64,000 nucleotides of DNA from contig NC_087436.1 of the NCBI RefSeq assembly GCF_036321535.1, positions 40,550,001-40,614,000 on the forward strand, given 5' to 3'. The DNA is from Camelus dromedarius (Eukaryota). Below the pieces are notes generated by a model. It saw nothing but the letters and a program-made list of their open reading frames with translations, had not been told where the DNA came from and did no database searches. Of this stretch, positions 27,301 to 35,364 are shown piece after piece. The stretch's first letter is position 1. Each line of letters opens with the position of its first letter. The translations under genes were made by a program, and so were the position numbers.

Positions 27301-27428
27301 GAATTTTTTAAAGCCAATTTATTTCTGTTATATTATTTTAGAATTCTGAAAATTATCTGAATTAGAGAGAAGTATGCACACAGAAGCACATTCGTACACA
27401 TCTTCTAAACATGAAGACTGAAACTGAC

Positions 27429-27853
27429 TGTCAGCCGAGGGAGGCTGATGTGGGGTTTTAGGAGGTGAGTGGCCCAAATGAAAAAATGCACGAGGAGTTG
27501 CCATACTGCTGGACAGACTTCAGCCAGAGACACCATGGGGTTAACAACACTTTATTGTCACAGGGAGGTGCGCCCTATGATGCACCTGTCCTGCTTCTAT
27601 CTGTTTTCTGTCAGCACACGCGCGGTCTGAGTTTCTTTGTTTATTAGGCTTACAGAATATCTCTAGCACATGCGTACTTCCATTTTCTTTGTTCTAAAGC
27701 TTATATAATTGACGCATGCGTGGAGCAATTATTTACTGCATCCTACAAACATGCTCCGATCGTGGCCTTGGGTCCCACGGCTATAACTCATCTCAATGCT
27801 CTGACTGTGGCCTTGGGTCCCACGGCCTTAACTCATCTCAACGCCAGCTCACA
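27429..27853 (-). repeat. 3' LTR (425 bp)
   Basis: Direct repeat of 33320-33745. Viral-sense termini TGTGAG...CTGACA. Confidence 0.97.
27551..27556 (-). terminator. Polyadenylation signal AATAAA in the 3' LTR
   Basis: Plus-strand tttatt; the 5' LTR copy is at 33442-33447. Confidence 0.75.
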
Positions 27854-29023
27854 TTCCACCCCCTAGGTCGTGAACACTAGCCCACAGGGCGGAGCATTGT
27901 GTCCAAAGATCACAACAACAATACAGAGTACAGTATCCTACCAATATACAGACAGCAACAATAGCCAGGACAGTTAGGCTCCATCTCCAGGAGGACGTCA
28001 AGGATGACCACCAATTTTTAAGGGGGTCTTGAGTTACATGATCTATGTGATCCAATTTTTGATCTATTTTATGCAGTGTCTTAGCTATTTTTTTTTTTTG
28101 GTGATCTGGTATATAGATACAACATTTAATATGTAACATAGCACATGTGCCACCCTGGCTTGTAGTGAGAATATTTAATGTCATTTTATTTTGTAAGACT
28201 ACCTTTTGCATCTGGGTAGTCTCGTTTAACAATTTTTTTATAGTTCTTCTAGTAACATTTAGTACAGCTGATATGTGTTGAGCTAAAGTTTTTACCTGTA
28301 ATTTAACACTGATGGTCCCAGCACCAGGCAGGAACAGGGCCATGGGATAAAACCATCAAGCTGCACACTTTTTCCGGTGCCACCGGGTGTGCAGTGGGTC
28401 CCAATTTGTGGGGCGCTCTGTCAAAGTGGGCCGGATATGTCCAGGCAAGTAAGCTCTACCCCAAGTACAGCACCCTGTCCATTTAGGTGGGAGATAAGAC
28501 CATTCGTGGATGTCACATATCCACAGATACCCTGGTGGCAGGAAATCAGTGGGTTTTGTGCCAATTAGAGGTCGTCCATCCCACCAGGTGGAGGCATTTA
28601 CATTATAAGTAATTTTGGCACACAGCTCTTTTGGGAGCCACCCCACTGTGCGGTTTGGAGCCTCGTGTTCAAACTGCTGTTCAATACAGAGGGGGCTTAA
28701 ATTTTTTACTTTTACATGAACACTATTTATTTATCTCCACCCATTTTATACAGTCCTTTTAATTGGGGGGGGGGGGGGCATTGCCCCGCTCATGTAGGAG
28801 TATTTTTTTAATAGTCTGCTGCCGCAAGTTCCAGGGCGATCTCGCTGTCCTGTTGGCATTTTATTGAATCAAGGTGCTCCAATTAGTTTTGGACGCGGGG
28901 TGGAGGTGCCACGGCAGTCCATCTCTTGTGTCTACAGGAAGTTTAGTACAGACCCAACAGTGAGAGACGTTGTGGACTCGCGTGAAAGTGTGTGCCCAGG
29001 AGAACATGGTGTTTGTTTTTACC
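27849..29023 (-). pseudogene. env: env (gamma-type SU/TM), disrupted
   Basis: SU motif CWVC, decayed furin site RKKC, fusion peptide (W)WFYPMALFLPGAG, ISD-like LQNKMTLNILTTSQGG, CX6CC CAMLHIKCC, and membrane anchor WSLTVLAIVAVCILVG. Stops at 28863, 28748, 28733 and 28358; frameshift near the 14-G run at 28765-28778. Confidence 0.92.
27854..27864 (-). other. Polypurine tract AGGGGGTGGAA
   Basis: Purine-rich run directly abutting the 3' LTR start (TGTGAG) in viral sense. Confidence 0.85.
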
Positions 29024-29050
29024 CTGGATGGAAGGACAGAGCAGAGGTGG
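29024..29050 (-). promoter_or_regulatory. Candidate env splice acceptor
   Basis: Viral-sense CCACCTCTGCTCTGTCCTTCCATCCAG|G is a pyrimidine tract plus CAG, 2 nt before the pol stop. The exon starts at 29023. Confidence 0.7.
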
Positions 29051-29953
29051 ACACCATGATTGGCAAATCTCTCCCTTCTGGGAGGATGCAAGCCACTTTT
29101 TTATTTTGTGAGAGTACAGTGGCAGGAAGGGCTGTTTGCCCTGGGCGGTGGTACCACACCAACCCGCCCACATTAGGTTGGTTACACTCTGGGAGAGCTT
29201 TAGGAGCTATCAGTGGAATTGTCCAAAGCCGTAGGGCTTCTGTTTTTTTAAGTAGGGACACTCCTGTTTTTTCTAGAGTAACCTGTACATCAAAAGGCCA
29301 TTTCCCCACTCGTGGGGTTACCTGCAGGGCTTTTTCTAGCCCATCGCCCCATGGTTTTAAAAGGGCTAGCCAGGGGCCTTTAGTCTGGACCTGATTTTTT
29401 CATGTCCAGGTGTCCTGTTTTTCTGAGTTTAACACCCTGGGGGCGCGTAATATTAACGCATGTCCCACTATTGAGACATCGGAGGCATCCTGCACAGGCC
29501 CAACTCTGAGCCTCCGAATAGTTCCTTGCAATAACTTTTTCAGTGGGCTCATACCGGTACGGCGAGGTTGTTTATTTAAAAGACGTACCGCCTGCGGCAA
29601 GACACTGTTCCAGCCTCGCCCTTGTGGTTTGAGAGCCCTCAGTTTGTCTTTTAATAGGCCATTGTACCGTTTAATCATTCCTGTTGCTTGAGGACGGTAA
29701 GGCACATGCAATATTCAGTTCATATTATTTTTCTTGGCCCATTTTTGGGTCTGCTGGGCAGTGAAAGAGGTTTCTCTGTCACTTTGTATTTTTAAGGGAG
29801 TCCCATAGAAGGCCCGTAAAACTTTCAGTGTTTTAATAGTAGAGTCTTGTGTAGCTCGGGGCACATGGTGAGCAAAACCTAGGCCAGTAGCAGTGTCTAC
29901 CGCTGTCAGCAGGTACCGCAAGCCAGTACTCGGAGCAAAGGGGCCTACGTAAT

Positions 29954-31990
29954 CTATTTGTCATACCTGCAGTGGCTGAATTTCCCGTGCAATCTTCCCC
30001 ATCTGTTGGGGCCATCGCTGTCGGTGCGGGTGGTGCTTAGCACACCATGGACGTGCCGCATGGCATCTTTGGCTTTACTGTGGCTCAGGTGCAGGCCCCA
30101 CCGATCGGCTACCTGCCTCATTGTGTATGAGCCAATATGACCAAGTTTTTTATGGAGCCAGGGACCTATATCGGGTCCTGGGACCATAGCCTGTACAGGA
30201 CGGAGTTGGGCTAGCGCGTCAGCAGCATCATTGTCCGGTGCCAGGGCTGGGCGGTGCCCTGGTACGTGGTAAACAGTATACTGGCCTTTTTGTCCTTTGT
30301 CCCATAACTGTTTCCACATCTGTTGTCCCCACAGGGGCCGGTGTCCAATCATCCAGTTTTGCAGGGCCCATTGGGGTATCCACAATGTAAGGCCTCGATA
30401 TATGGCCCAACTATCTGTACAAATCTGCAAGGGGCTAGGTTTATTTATCAACACCAGCCATACTGCCCATAACTCAGCCCATTGGCTGGATTGGCCTTCT
30501 CCGGTCTCATACCAGAAGGCTTTAGTGGCAGGGTGCAGTGCTACTGCAACCCAAGTGGGCGGACTGCCCTTACAAGATCCATCAGTATACCAAGCAGTTT
30601 CCGGGGGTGGCCCTTTCCCTTCACGAAAGGGACTGGGCACAGGGTCCACCCCTTGTTGTGGGAGCGTCTGTACATCAGGCGCAACAAATCTCATAGGCCC
30701 TAACACCTGCTGCAACTTTGCAGCCAAGGGGCTAGTGGTGTACTGGGCTCTCTGTTTCAAATAAGCACCCCACTTCATCAGAGTTGGGGTTTGGGCAGTT
30801 TCTGATCGGGATTGCTTTGCCCATGTCTGTACCCATCCTGCAATAGGGTATGTGGCTTGCACTTGGACCTCTTGCCTCCCCGTCAGGGGTTTAGTGGCAA
30901 TCAAGGATGTATAAGTTGCTAGCAACTGTTTCTCAATCAGAGAATAACGACATTTAGCCCCTTTCCACAACTGAGACCAGAATCCTAGGGGCACTTTCCG
31001 CTGCCCATGTTTCTGCCATAAGCCCCAGCCATATCCATCATTGTCCACATGGACTGTCAACCAGAAAGGGATGTCTGGATCTATAGTGCGCAGTGCTTGT
31101 GCTTGGGCCACTGTCCTCTTAGTTTTAACAAATGCACATTTGGTCTCATCAGACCAGTTCCAGACTTCTCCCTTTTTAATCAGTTTATAAAGGGGTTTGG
31201 CTATTTGGGCCAAATGAGGAATAAACACCCGCCAGTATCCCAGAAGACCCAAATAAGTCTGTAACTGTTTAACTGTTTTAAGACGGGAATATGCCTGGAT
31301 TTTGTCTATTACTGCTTTAGGCAGCACTTTTGTCTTACCCGACCAGACAACACCCAAGAATTTGATAGAATATCCAGGTCCTTGTACTTTGTTCTCGTTC
31401 ACGGCCCACCCCAAGCCCGCCAGGGCTTCTCGCAGCGCTGTGGCACTGGTTTTTAAATCTGAAAGAGAACCAGAGGTTAGCATTATGTCATCAATATAAT
31501 GGAACAAACAACCGGTATCTGGTTTGCTCCACGTAGCCAGGTCCTGGGCCACCAGGCCATGACACAGTGTGGGGCTGTGCAGATATCCTTGCGGCAACAC
31601 AACAAATGTCCATTGTCTGCCTTCCCAGGTGAAGGCAAACTGTTTTTGGCTCTCAGGGGCTATGTCTATCGAGAAGAATGCAATAGCCAGGTCAACCACA
31701 TAGTGACAAGTACCCAGTTCATGGGACAGTCGGTCCATTAAATCTGTTATATTTGGCACAGCTGTATGCATGGGGGGAGTGACTTTATTTAGTTCCCGAT
31801 AGTCCACTGTCATCCTCCAGGAGCCGTCTGGCTTCTGCACCGGCCATATTGGAGAGTTAAATGGGCTATGCGTAGCCCGAATTATACCGGCTTCCTCAAG
31901 CTTTAGAATAGTCTGTCCTATTTCCTCATGGCCTCCGGGCAATCGATATTGCTGGACATTTACCACTCGTGTGGCCTGTGGCAAAATCAA
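29954..31990 (-). CDS. Longest surviving pol reading frame: RT, tether, RNase H and start of integrase (678 codons, no ATG start)
   Basis: From the ORF track. Catalytic YIDD and RNase H acidic motifs are retained; the frame leaves the integrase register near 30055. Confidence 0.7.
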
Positions 31991-32392
31991 AGGTGCATGA
32001 TGAGGATGCCCCCGTATAACTGTTTTTACCCACGGACTCTCAGGCGAAATTCCCCTTGAGTCGTCTGTATTTGCAATCCTTGCAAAATCTCTATCCCCAA
32101 AATGTATTTAGCTACTGGGGATATAGGCACTTTATATGCAGCAGGGGGCAGACGGCCAATGCCCAAAATCAGAGTCACTCATTTAACACACATTTGCTTG
32201 TTTTCATATCCTTTTATATCAACCCATGGTCCCTGAAAATGCTCCGGATTTTCATGCACCAATGTAATTTCAGCTCCTGTGTCTACTAGTCAGCACTCGC
32301 TGTTTATTCATGGGGGACCAGTGAATAGTTAGCTCAACATGTGGCCTCCGGTCATCGGGGTGCCCCACGTCCCGAACACCTTGGCCTTCCTC

Positions 32393-33251
32393 CTAGTCTG
32401 GGAGGAAATCAGCAAAGGCCACCTCTCGGACCTGATGGGATGTTGGCAATGGAGTATATTGTTGCTCAGGCCGTAATTTTTTCCATTAGGCCATCAGCAC
32501 CTCCAATGGCTGGCCATCTAATTTTACACGGTCCAGGCCAGCTGCCAGTAAATCACACCATATCCGCCGGCGATCTAGCTTTTGGGGCCCTCCTAAAATT
32601 GGAGCATTCCCCTTTTTTTTCCTTGGTGTGGACTTCCCTTTCTGTGTCACTGCACAGGAGGAGGGGGTCTTGGACTCACCTTGAGTCTTGGCAGCATGTA
32701 CCCCCTTTTGGCGCACCTCTATGTCCCCCAGACGAGCCAGAGCCTCAGTTACTTTATGAATGGGGCGGTCTACATACAGTGCTAGTAGCGCCGCCATAGT
32801 CCCAAACGTTCCCGTTGGGCCATTAGCCAAAATCAAATCTTTTATTCGAGCTGTAAGGAGCTCATCATCTGGATGCTCCCAGGGGCAGTGGGACTGGAGT
32901 TACACAGGCATAGCTGCTCTCAGAGGCGGCAGAGCTAGGACCACGCAGACATCTTTCTGCTGTGCTGGGTCTCTGCTTAAGCTCCTCTTTTTTGCACTGC
33001 AACTCCTCCACTTGCATCTGTAAATCTCTCATGTCTTGGCTAGCATGCCATAAAACAGATAAGAACATCCAGGCCACCCTCCCGGCTGCCTCTCGGTGGG
33101 CTAATGGGACATTATTTTTTGACAGCTCCAATGCCCTCCGGACGTCATCTGGCCAGGGCGCAACTGTGTCCCAATCCTCAGGTTGAGCCCATGTCAGCAA
33201 ATAGGCTGCCACCGGGTACCATACAGAGGTAGGGGGCCACTTTGCTTCCAT
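32393..33251 (-). pseudogene. gag: gag (class III type), frameshifted and apparently internally deleted
   Basis: MEAKWPPTSVWYPVAA...WMFLSVL with a coiled coil, then EHPDDELLTARIKDLILANGP and IWCDLLAAGLDRVKLDGQP, resembling ERV-L-type Gag. No Gly2 and no Cys-His knuckle. Ends at TAG 32395-32393. The frame is open upstream to ATG 33395. Confidence 0.8.
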
Positions 33252-33290
33252 CAGAGCATCCCCGTCAGGGGCAGGGGGTTCAGAAGGGGC

Positions 33291-33299
33291 ACTCACCTC
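33291..33299 (-). promoter_or_regulatory. Major splice donor GAG|GTGAGT
   Basis: Consensus donor 3 nt after the PBS; the intron starts at 33296. Confidence 0.8.
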
Positions 33300-33427
33300 A
33301 TCCTGCCGACTACGCCAAGTGTCAGCCGAGGGAGGCTGATGTGGGGTTCTAGGAGGTGAGCGGCCCAAACGAAAAAATGCACGAGGAGTTGCCATACTGC
33401 TGGACAGACTTCAGCCAGAGACACCAT
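33297..33427 (-). CDS. Putative LTR/PBS-encoded Env leader exon, MVSLAEVCPAVWQLLVHFFVWAAHLLEPHISLPRLTLGVVGRM(R)
   Basis: ATG at 33427-33425, 43 open codons plus AG up to the donor. Splicing to 29023 restores the env frame (AG+G = Arg, then VKTNTMFSW...CWVC). Hydrophobic core at residues 10-26. Confidence 0.6.
33300..33317 (-). other. Primer-binding site for tRNA-Ser
   Basis: Viral-sense TGGCGTAGTCGGCAGGAT is the 18-nt complement of the mammalian tRNA-Ser 3' end ATCCTGCCGACTACGCCA, 2 nt after the 5' LTR. Confidence 0.95.
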
Positions 33428-33745
33428 GGGGTTAACAACACTTTATTGTCACAGGGAGGTGCGCCCTATGATGCACCTGTCCTGCTTTTAATCTGTTTTC
33501 TGTCAGCACATGCGCGGTCTGAGTTTCTTTGTTCATTAGGCTTACAGAATATCTCTAGCACATGCGTACTTCCATTTTCTTTGTTCTAAATCTTATATAA
33601 TTGACGCATGCGTGGAGCAATTATTTACTGCATCCTACAAACATGCTCCGATCGTGGCCTTGGGTCCCACGGCCTTAACTCATCTCAATGCTCCGATCGT
33701 GGCCTTGGTTCCCACGGCCTTAACTCATCTCAACACCAGCTCACA
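33320..33745 (-). repeat. 5' LTR (426 bp)
   Basis: Direct repeat of 27429-27853; by manual alignment about 14 substitutions and 1 indel. Followed by the PBS in viral sense. Confidence 0.97.
33643..33732. repeat. 2 x 45-bp tandem repeat in U3 (also at 27751-27840)
   Basis: atgctccgatcgtggccttgggtcccacggccttaactcatctca occurs twice, with 1 mismatch in the 5' LTR. Confidence 0.95.
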
Positions 33746-35364
33746 CTGACTTTCCAAATTTATGAAACACATATGAAGATCATTGTGCTGTGTTTAATTA
33801 AATTTATTTCTCATTGTGTAAAACTGTTGCATGTAAATGGGAATTATTTGAAGACCTTTAATATTTTGAATATATTGTGTTACATAATGACTTGTGTTTT
33901 ATTATTAATAAAGTATAAATAAATATGACCTACAGCTATTTCAGTTTTTGATCAAATCACTGGATGATCTTATCTCTTTTACATTATATACTGATTTCTC
34001 ACAAATGAAAGCAGAGATATTTGATTCTTAATCTTTATCTGCACAGCTTTGTCAGTTTTGGAGACTGGATCAAATTGGAGAGTAAATTACATTTTGCTAA
34101 AAATGCATTTTTTTCCTCTAGGAGTGAAATATCTCCCAAATATTAGTGATGTGAATCCCTTTGTTAAATAAGCTAAGAATACATTAAATGTTACCAGGTG
34201 AGTGTGCAGACTGAAAAAAAACAAAACCAATCATATGCTTTGTGATATTTTAGTCTCTCCCCTTTAGCATAACAGAAAATAATCAATAATGAATTATATT
34301 CAAGTTTTTGTTTAACTATTTTTGAAAGCCAGTACTGTATATGCAGCTGAATAAAACATTCAAATGCATTACATGCTGGGAGAAAAAAATATACGTAATT
34401 TTCTGTCCAATATTTACATTTCAAAGTACTTTATTGAAAACTTTAAATGTTTTTATTTATATTCTATTATTTACTGAAGTTTTAGAATATGGTATTTTGG
34501 CCATTAATGAGTTTCTTTGCAAATGTAGTTTTAGTCAAAGTAGATGATACCTTTGTACTTTTTAGATGAAGCCGTTTCCTAAGAGTTTCCTAAGGGTATG
34601 CCATGGGAAAAGCCTACCAAACACATTCAGGAGGAATTGAACACATGTGTAACTTACTTTATCACCTGTTCATCATTAGCTAGAAATATGTTTCCAAATT
34701 ACATAAAGACTGAAAAGACATGTTTTGAATTATTTGAGATTTGATCTGACTGTTAACTAATTCTATTACTTGAAATAATTCTGATTATTTGACCTAATTC
34801 TAAATCACGCATTTGATTGTATCTCAGAAAACCAATTCCACAGACAGGGAGCCTGCTCCAGTGATGGTTGGGACCTTCATGGTCCTGAGCCCCAGGTATC
34901 TAAATTTTCAGCAGTTGTTACTGCCATTCCAGGTGCCAGACATAGAGGCAATTAACATGATACAGTCATTAGTAGACATGGCTTCCATTTAAAGTGCTAA
35001 TTGAGGGAGATGGATTGACAGATGGATGGATGGATTACAAAGCTGAAGAACCGATCAATATATTGCATGTGTCATAATAAAGATCTACTTTAGTTTTACT
35101 TAAGCACAAAAGATTTTTGGAGTAGAGAATGTGGTGGGAAGGTAAGTATAATTCTTGCTGTGTTCTAGAAACTCTTTGTATGAAGGACAGAATTTGAATG
35201 CAAGATTGCAGCAATATGATGGGTCAGAAATCTATCACAGGGATTCAGACAAAGATGATGACTTCAGAAAAATCAAAGAGGGGTAGTAGGAGTAGAGAGG
35301 AAAGAAAATCTAAGAGAAATTTGGGTGGTGACATTGGAAGAGCATGTTGGTGATTGTGGGACTA

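Follow-up and report, generated by a model that had tools for sequence, protein, structure and literature searches.

Evidence for a three-exon env with a signal-peptide exon inside pol in a camelid endogenous retrovirus

Retroviral Env is normally translated from a singly spliced RNA in which the start codon and the signal peptide lie directly upstream of the surface subunit (SU), and the U5 region and primer-binding site (PBS) are treated as non-coding. In avian leukosis virus and Rous sarcoma virus (ALV/RSV), the Env start is the gag AUG, which lies past the PBS and upstream of the splice donor; six codons are joined by a single splice to an env exon that holds the hydrophobic core. In Ty1 of yeast, which has no env, gag begins in U5 of the 5′ long terminal repeat (LTR) and reads through the PBS. 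Here we describe an endogenous retrovirus (ERV) of the dromedary, Camelus dromedarius, found in a window of 64,000 nucleotides (RefSeq assembly GCF_036321535.1, contig NC_087436.1, positions 40,550,001 to 40,614,000; all positions below are those of the window). The element is a defective, G-to-A-mutated provirus of 6.3 kb on the minus strand (27429-33745), such that positions fall along its sense strand. We favor, at a probability of roughly 0.6, an account in which its env was expressed from a doubly spliced mRNA of three exons, with translation starting in the leader exon and the signal peptide encoded by a mini-exon inside pol.

Exons of env and the signal peptide

The conventional env layout, in which the env exon carries an ATG and a hydrophobic core immediately before SU, was not found in this element. 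In the window copy, the pol stop codon (TAA, 29021-29019) adjoins the env acceptor, the env frame is closed upstream by a stop at 29103-29101, and the first ATG of that frame, at 29007, lies 16 codons ahead of the CWVC motif of SU and is not followed by a hydrophobic stretch. An earlier note on this DNA, made from the sequence alone, had reported the upstream stop, this ATG, and the acceptor, and its claim that SU lacks a start and signal peptide of its own extends to other copies. The pol-env junction was compared in 28 genome copies with 79-93% identity to the window. In 26 of them, the env frame contains no Met from the upstream stop to the env acceptor; the two exceptions show no hydrophobic stretch after theirs, and none of the 28 has such a stretch in that region. 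The acceptor AG is kept in 26 of these copies. We conclude that the lack of a conventional env start is a family-wide trait.

RNA contigs from four libraries of three studies were placed on positions 27400-33800 at 90% likeness and contained two splice joints, both with GT..AG borders. The first connects the leader to a site inside pol (33297 to 31458, 1838 nt skipped, GT..AG on the sense strand) and was found in runs X3, X8, and X14; the same joint from copies with a second PBS variant was found in X2 and X3, which brings the total to all four runs and all three studies. The second joint connects pol to env (31339 to 29023, 2315 nt skipped) and was found in X14, one of the four runs. No spliced DNA copy was present among 30, 40, and 41 genomic matches, and all full genomic matches included intron flanks. 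No genomic match started or stopped at an exon boundary; the joints therefore do not stem from spliced DNA copies in this genome.

The two joints delimit a mini-exon within the reverse transcriptase (RT) region (Table 1) that holds a hydrophobic core of 13 residues and a positively charged n-region. Among 37 genome copies, its length is 120 nt in 33, its acceptor AG (as CAG) is kept in 36, and its donor GT is kept in 35. The leader and mini-exon donors both leave two bases of a codon and the mini-exon is composed of 1 + 39 x 3 + 2 bases, so that the frame is continuous from an ATG at 33427 in the leader, via the mini-exon, into SU. The 27 codons between the mini-exon acceptor and the core are open except at one CpG, where a recurrent stop arises as CGA becomes TGA (8 copies) and where CAA is found in 5 others, a pattern of decay after insertion.

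Two database protein models contain the same three parts. P0004 (Vicugna pacos, "PABLB member 1 Env polyprotein-like") and P0012 (Camelus ferus, LOC116668910 isoform X2) consist of a leader, the mini-exon peptide, and SU, which map to 33427-33296, 31460-31338, and 29022 onward. The leader open reading frame (ORF) corresponds to residues 1-44 and the mini-exon to residues 44-84; the middle piece begins RFG(N/S) and is followed by VTANT(M/T)FSWAHTF...CWV(C/Y). The coding sequences of both models start at the R/U5 ATG at 33427, and the mini-exon is skipped in none of the three camelid models that start there (P0004, P0012, and P0013). The third, P0013 (Camelus ferus isoform X1), has an extra in-frame exon of 68 residues between the leader and the mini-exon, which did not map to the window copy. 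We consider the three-exon structure of env highly probable, and we note that it is already present, unremarked, in two database protein models.

The C-terminal two-thirds of another copy's env, used as a query, retrieved relatives of the Env protein from donkey, bat, sloth, deer, and alpaca, named "endogenous retrovirus group PABLB member 1 Env." The mini-exon peptide aligned with the N-terminal hydrophobic segments of the donkey (P0001, QSPGTWLICQILEGCLVGWSVAN), sloth (P0003, QITRAWTVCQIFGCYLIGTVGN), and bat (P0002, QSARAWVLCQILGCYVGGVTGN) proteins. Moreover, the mini-exon was the top hydropathy peak of P0012, with a mean Kyte-Doolittle value of 2.47 versus approximately 1.6-1.9 for the U5 segment. 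Small residues occupy positions −3 and −1 before an Asn in all four proteins (camelid, donkey, sloth, and bat), and the usual (−3, −1) rule, read by eye and not by a predictor, makes VTA/N, which spans the second junction, the likely cleavage site. Mature SU would therefore begin approximately 20 residues ahead of CWVC. The earlier note, which missed the mini-exon, had placed the Env signal peptide in the LTR. We conclude instead that the signal peptide is encoded inside pol, because the segment homologous to the signal peptides of the relatives is the mini-exon (31458-31339).

A protein search with the mini-exon and the SU N terminus against longer proteins returned only one partial camel match, and a profile search of 1.84 billion representatives returned one more protein with a similar core, P0114. 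P0114 (599 residues) contains nine tandem repeats, each opening with MAGECRQKAKTWMTCQLLGCFLA, which resembles the mini-exon signal peptide and has a Met of its own. The deer-type PABLB Env relatives P0008 and P0153 have a long N-terminal region of approximately 60 residues that contains an arginine-rich stretch (RKGWYARRRRSLNQQ) and is followed by an unrelated hydrophobic core, an arrangement reminiscent of betaretroviral Rem/Rec-type signal peptides.

Another way to connect the leader to SU would be a single splice from 33297 to 29023, with the 43-residue U5/PBS peptide itself serving as the Env signal peptide. The phase arithmetic on which the earlier note relied is correct, as the leader donor leaves two bases and the env acceptor gives one; the direct join is in frame, skipping of the 120-nt mini-exon preserves that frame, and the U5 segment is moderately hydrophobic. 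Both of the sites that the note had paired are used in the RNA contigs, but they were not seen joined to each other: the direct joint was found in none of the four runs, in data that show presence and not absence, while both mini-exon joints were found. Given also that none of the three camelid models omits the mini-exon and that the U5 segment is not the one that matches related signal peptides, we regard direct splicing with a U5-encoded signal peptide as very unlikely.

The leader exon and the start of translation

In the favored three-exon account, exon 1 would be the R-U5-PBS leader, ending at the donor (33297), the mini-exon just past the YIDD motif of RT would form exon 2 and supply the real signal peptide, and SU and the transmembrane subunit (TM) from 29023 would form exon 3, with all junctions in phase 2. 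No conserved in-frame ATG was found in the mini-exon among the 37 copies, nor in exon 3 ahead of the core. Because exons 2 and 3 have no AUG upstream of the core, translation would begin in exon 1, at either 33427 or 33301. A start at 33427 would produce an 84-residue pre-sequence of which the first 43 residues are the U5/PBS peptide, and a start at 33301 would produce a 42-residue signal peptide. We think it somewhat probable that translation started in the leader exon at one ATG or another, and we put a start at 33427 specifically a little below even odds.

The ATG at 33427 is located 14 nt past AATAAA, with C at −3 and G at +4. As the earlier note had described, it opens 43 codons (MVSLAEV...GVVGRM) over U5 and the PBS that end in a GAG/GTGAGT donor, reads into a stop at once if unspliced (AGG TGA), and has a U5 part that is open in the 3′ LTR too. 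The second env-phase ATG, at 33301, was found in 26 of 29 genome copies. The ATG at 33427 and its frame are intact in 17 of the 29, including diverged subfamilies with very different peptides (e.g., MSAPGAICFAVWQLLMHF...), and one intact copy carries an in-frame 12-nt deletion. All three parts were retrieved for 20 proviruses, and in 5 of these the reading frame stays open from the U5 ATG as far as the CxxC motif. In a Markov-1 simulation of LTR-like sequence, a 43-codon open frame in the env phase arose with P of ~0.10, and the 43-codon ORF taken alone is within chance; the same simulation gave P of ~0.008 for the env and gag phases both being open. We see little evidence that the 43-codon leader frame has been under selection.

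Several observations weigh against the favored account. The joint from 31339 to 29023 comes from one contig with a depth of 8, the shorter sides of the joints measure only 28-30 letters, and the contig data are compatible with a minor isoform that may join the leader directly to SU. Database models pick long ORFs by design, and the model start at 33427 is therefore not independent evidence. An ATG in strong context (33395, with A at −3 and G at +4) sits between the two env-phase candidates, and three upstream ATGs in R (33563, 33536, and 33511) open short ORFs in weak context. Two loci of one subfamily, L055 and L057, lack the U5 ATG. A codon-position test on 27 copies (L034 and L052 were dropped, as their 5′ parts are unrelated) assigned variants shared by at least three copies to 13/16/13 columns at env-phase positions 1/2/3, with a coding signal in neither leader frame, and survival of the leader frame through 42 shared substitutions was not significant (neutral P of ~0.10-0.16). 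Finally, relatives in other mammals start within the segment homologous to the mini-exon, and a GTG start is possible at that position here.

The main rival follows from the last point: the same three exons would be used, translation would start at the mini-exon GTG, and the leader frames would be incidental or upstream ORFs only. In the alignment, the GTG stands precisely where the sloth and bat proteins and P0114 have their start Met, 11 residues ahead of a conserved W, and in 34 of the 37 copies the codon at that position has G at both −3 and +4. Both the flat constraint test in the leader and the absence of the U5 ATG from L055 and L057 are as this rival would have it. GTG starts are usually weak, however, and scanning ribosomes would reach at least two ATGs, one of them in frame, before arriving at this one. 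Moreover, the codon is GTG in 27 of the 37 copies and ATG in 1, but GCG (4 copies) or another codon (5 copies) in the remaining 9, and the codons between the mini-exon acceptor and the core stay open save for the one CpG. We consider a GTG start unlikely.

Another possibility is that Env was already nonfunctional in the camelid lineage, its ATG having been lost, such that the spliced RNAs are relics and the in-frame leader ATGs are due to chance. A single open frame of 43 codons is within reach of chance and the leader gives no selection signal, every env examined is broken, and 15 of the 20 proviruses are interrupted between the U5 ATG and CxxC. The breaks differ among copies, however, as expected of decay after insertion, while the splice sites, phases, and SU/TM motifs are kept across subfamilies that are 79-97% identical, and the joint openness of both leader frames is improbable by chance. 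We judge the loss of Env function before the family spread to be quite improbable, and Env would, in the three-exon account, have been functional while the family was active.

The ATG at 33395 opens a frame in the gag phase that crosses U5, the PBS, and the donor and continues into gag; 21 of 29 copies keep this frame open up to the MEAKW region. The downstream gag ATG (MEAKW) is GTG in three copies. Judging from the arrangement of these frames, Gag may have its start in the LTR; alternatively, the upstream part may represent an extension of the glyco-gag type. Taken jointly, a layout may be drawn in which U5 and the PBS are translated, the R/U5 ATG serves as the start of an Env precursor when the RNA is doubly spliced and of a 44-codon upstream ORF when it is genomic, the second U5 ATG starts an extended Gag, and the signal peptide is overprinted in RT. 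We offer this combination tentatively, as the odds run against all of its parts being right together.

The state and class of the provirus

The features of the provirus are listed in Table 1.

Table 1. Positions in the window of the features of the provirus (slashes mark splice borders)
Feature	Position	Strand	Remarks
Target-site duplication GTCAG, 5 bp	33746..33750, second copy 27424-27428	(-)	read directly
5′ LTR	33320..33745	(-)	TGT...ACA ends; 96-98% identity direct repeat with 27429-27853
LTR signals	TATATAA 33599-33593, AATAAA 33447-33442	(-)	in 5′ LTR, read directly
Leader ORF, env phase (coding part of exon 1)	33297..33427	(-)	ATG 33427-33425, 43 codons + 2 bases
Gag-phase ORF from second U5 ATG 33395	32865..33395	(-)	176 codons in this copy; U5, PBS, donor, into gag
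PBS, 18 nt	33300..33317	(-)	complementary to 3′ end of tRNA-Ser(AGA)
Second env-phase ATG	33299..33301	(-)	leader codon 43; overlaps last two PBS bases; A at −3
Major donor, intron start GTGAGT	33291..33296	(-)	exon 1 ends at 33297; RNA-contig joint 33297 to 31458, GT..AG
pol ORF (RT, RNase H)	29954..31990	(-)	Pfam RVT_1 1.1e-22, RNase_H 1.9e-17
Mini-exon acceptor	31459..31485	(-)	branch-point-like CTAAC, pyrimidine tract, CAG (CTAAC...TCTCTTTCAG/)
Mini-exon, 120 nt	31339..31458	(-)	inside RT coding region, frame differs from pol; 41-residue peptide
GTG at start-Met position of relatives	31407..31409	(-)	possible non-AUG start
Mini-exon donor GTAAGA	31333..31338	(-)	phase 2; joint 31339 to 29023 in run X14
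env acceptor, pyrimidine tract + CAG	29024..29050	(-)	exon 3 from 29023 (CCAG/G); joint in RNA contigs
SU start of this copy, VKTNTMFSWAHTF..CWVC	28861..29023	(-)	CWVC 28959-28948; premature TAA 28863-28861
Remaining env	27854..28860	(-)	stops and frame changes; CX6CC of TM (C-AMLHIK-CC) 28145-28119
3′ LTR	27429..27853	(-)	direct repeat of 5′ LTR

The 5′ LTR ends in CA at 33320, and the PBS begins two bases further. Fifteen nucleotides of the PBS complement equal the end of tRNA-Ser(aga) genes at all four host loci checked, out of nine genome matches. Two PBS variants occur in the family, TGGCGTAGTCGGCAGGAT (the window type) and one near TGGCGCTGTGAGCAGGAT, as noted for the leader loci L040, L042-L046, L048-L052, L054, L056, L058, and L059; both retain the CAGGATGAG/GT donor and the in-frame ATG. 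The second variant presumably fits another tRNA-Ser isoacceptor. The U3 region contains tandem repeats of approximately 35 nt (GAGATGAGTTAAGGCCGTGGGA.CCAAGGCCAC...), with two units in the window (33650-33740 and 27760-27850) and approximately seven in the 3′ LTR of L002, as judged from a repeated translation. The internal region consists of decayed gag, an RT-RNase H ORF with its YIDD motif at 31498-31487, approximately 30 nt upstream of the mini-exon, integrase (IN), and a broken env. The TM frame of env, in the region of 27850-27880, closes in the opening bases of the 3′ LTR, at a TGA inside TGTGAG.

The window copy cannot make Env, as SU stops at 28863-28861 and the remainder is out of frame. 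The stop codon there, TAA, is TGG in other copies. Private differences of the window copy number 27 in approximately 870 aligned bases, and 18 of them are sense-strand G-to-A changes, in the contexts GA (9), GG (4), GC (4), and GT (1). Likewise, the RNA contigs differ from the window by T-to-C on the plus strand, that is, a sense-strand A in the window where the contig has G, at 144-165 places per run in all four runs, with at most 51 places for any other type. Several stop codons of the window copy are of the G-to-A kind. The excess suggests editing by a cytidine deaminase of the APOBEC3 type before or at insertion, and such editing would account for TAA in the window copy where others have TGA or TGG.

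On its sequence features, the family is best described as a camelid ERV with a tRNA-Ser PBS, class-III-type LTR and RT features, and a captured class I (gamma-type) Env. TGT/ACA LTR ends, a 5-bp duplication, and YIDD are listed as class III traits (PMC8278194), and the class III HERVS is described as having an envelope of class I whose relatives are PRIMA41, PABL, and HERV1_ARTIODACT (PMC4724089). The env ORF of another copy (L006) matches Pfam TLV_coat (PF00429; E value 1.1e-14, 54.5 bits, cutoff 22.5), as do the relatives, and the class I Env motifs CXXC (CWVC) in SU and CX6CC in TM are present. A basic SU/TM cleavage site and fusion peptide, HRGKR/AAWWFYPMALFLPGAG, are found in other copies and are altered in the window copy. 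When the RT was compared with solved structures, murine leukemia virus/XMRV RT and foamy virus protease-RT scored alike (E values of 4e-45 to 3e-44), a ranking of scores and not a phylogeny. No dUTPase family was present among the Pfam matches of the RT-RNase H and IN ORFs, a weak negative in copies so decayed.

Meaning and comparison with known systems

Neither a signal-peptide exon in pol nor an env start in the leader was described in the literature searched, which did not extend to subscription journals and supplements. In this element, an exon of its own, overprinted on RT, encodes the signal peptide, and in-frame AUGs are confined to the LTR/PBS leader. If the leader start is true, then the reverse-transcription signals of the PBS and U5, the major donor, and two reading frames would be mutually constrained in approximately 130 nt, and Gag and Env synthesis would be coupled via the choice of start codon. 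Moreover, env genes of other ERVs that seemingly lack a signal peptide, candidates for co-option included, may carry it on a distant exon, and searches restricted to ORFs would then call such genes defective.

The ERV-S label that the earlier note had given the element is reasonable. As far as the available portions of the sources describe HERV-S and mammalian ERV-S, the likeness includes the tRNA-Ser PBS, the 5-bp duplication, the TGT..ACA ends, YIDD, the lack of a dUTPase match, and a PABL-related Env. The note was not aware of an LTR-encoded signal peptide having been described for ERV-S; the ERV-S literature searched, in the parts available, did not deal with env splicing, with a signal-peptide exon in pol, or with a leader start. 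An extra pol ORF of XtERV-S (Orf-x2), considered as a counterpart of the mini-exon, lies in IN and is unrelated.

The PABLB Envs (HERV-R(b)-like) of donkey, sloth, bat, and deer are 38-47% identical to the camelid Env in SU/TM and have CWVC near the N terminus. Those of donkey, sloth, and bat have the signal-peptide core CQI(L/F)xGC in common with the camelid mini-exon. Unlike the camelid element, they begin with a Met 11-13 residues ahead of the core, and in the sloth and bat proteins and P0114, a Met stands 11 residues ahead of the W. The deer protein P0008 also differs from the camelid element, as its core is unrelated and follows a long arginine-rich N terminus. The overprinted-exon layout may date from the capture, by a class III virus, of a class I env without its leader, and it may be shared by the ERV-S-like elements of donkey, sloth, and bat.

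Mouse mammary tumor virus (Rem/Env), HERV-K(HML-2) (Rec/Env), Jaagsiekte sheep retrovirus, and the foamy virus leader resemble the element described here in having a long pre-sequence ahead of the SU cleavage site (at most 84 residues here) and doubly spliced RNAs; the pre-sequences themselves are alike only in length. The signal peptides of those viruses adjoin the rest of env without a break, and experiments have established additional functions for them. Ty1 offers another likeness, a coding sequence that runs from U5 across the PBS, but that ORF is gag in an env-less LTR retrotransposon. The nearest known mechanism is that of ALV/RSV, whose Env start, like the one proposed here, precedes the major donor and is brought into frame with env by splicing. 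A start shared between gag and env as in ALV was not found, as the frame from 33395 leaves phase 0 at the donor and meets a stop in the mini-exon of the spliced RNA; Env requires phase 2, as supplied by 33427 or 33301. Unlike ALV, the element has env-phase ATGs that are distinct from the gag-phase ATG and positioned in R/U5 and the PBS, and two splices are needed to reach the hydrophobic core, which has an exon to itself.

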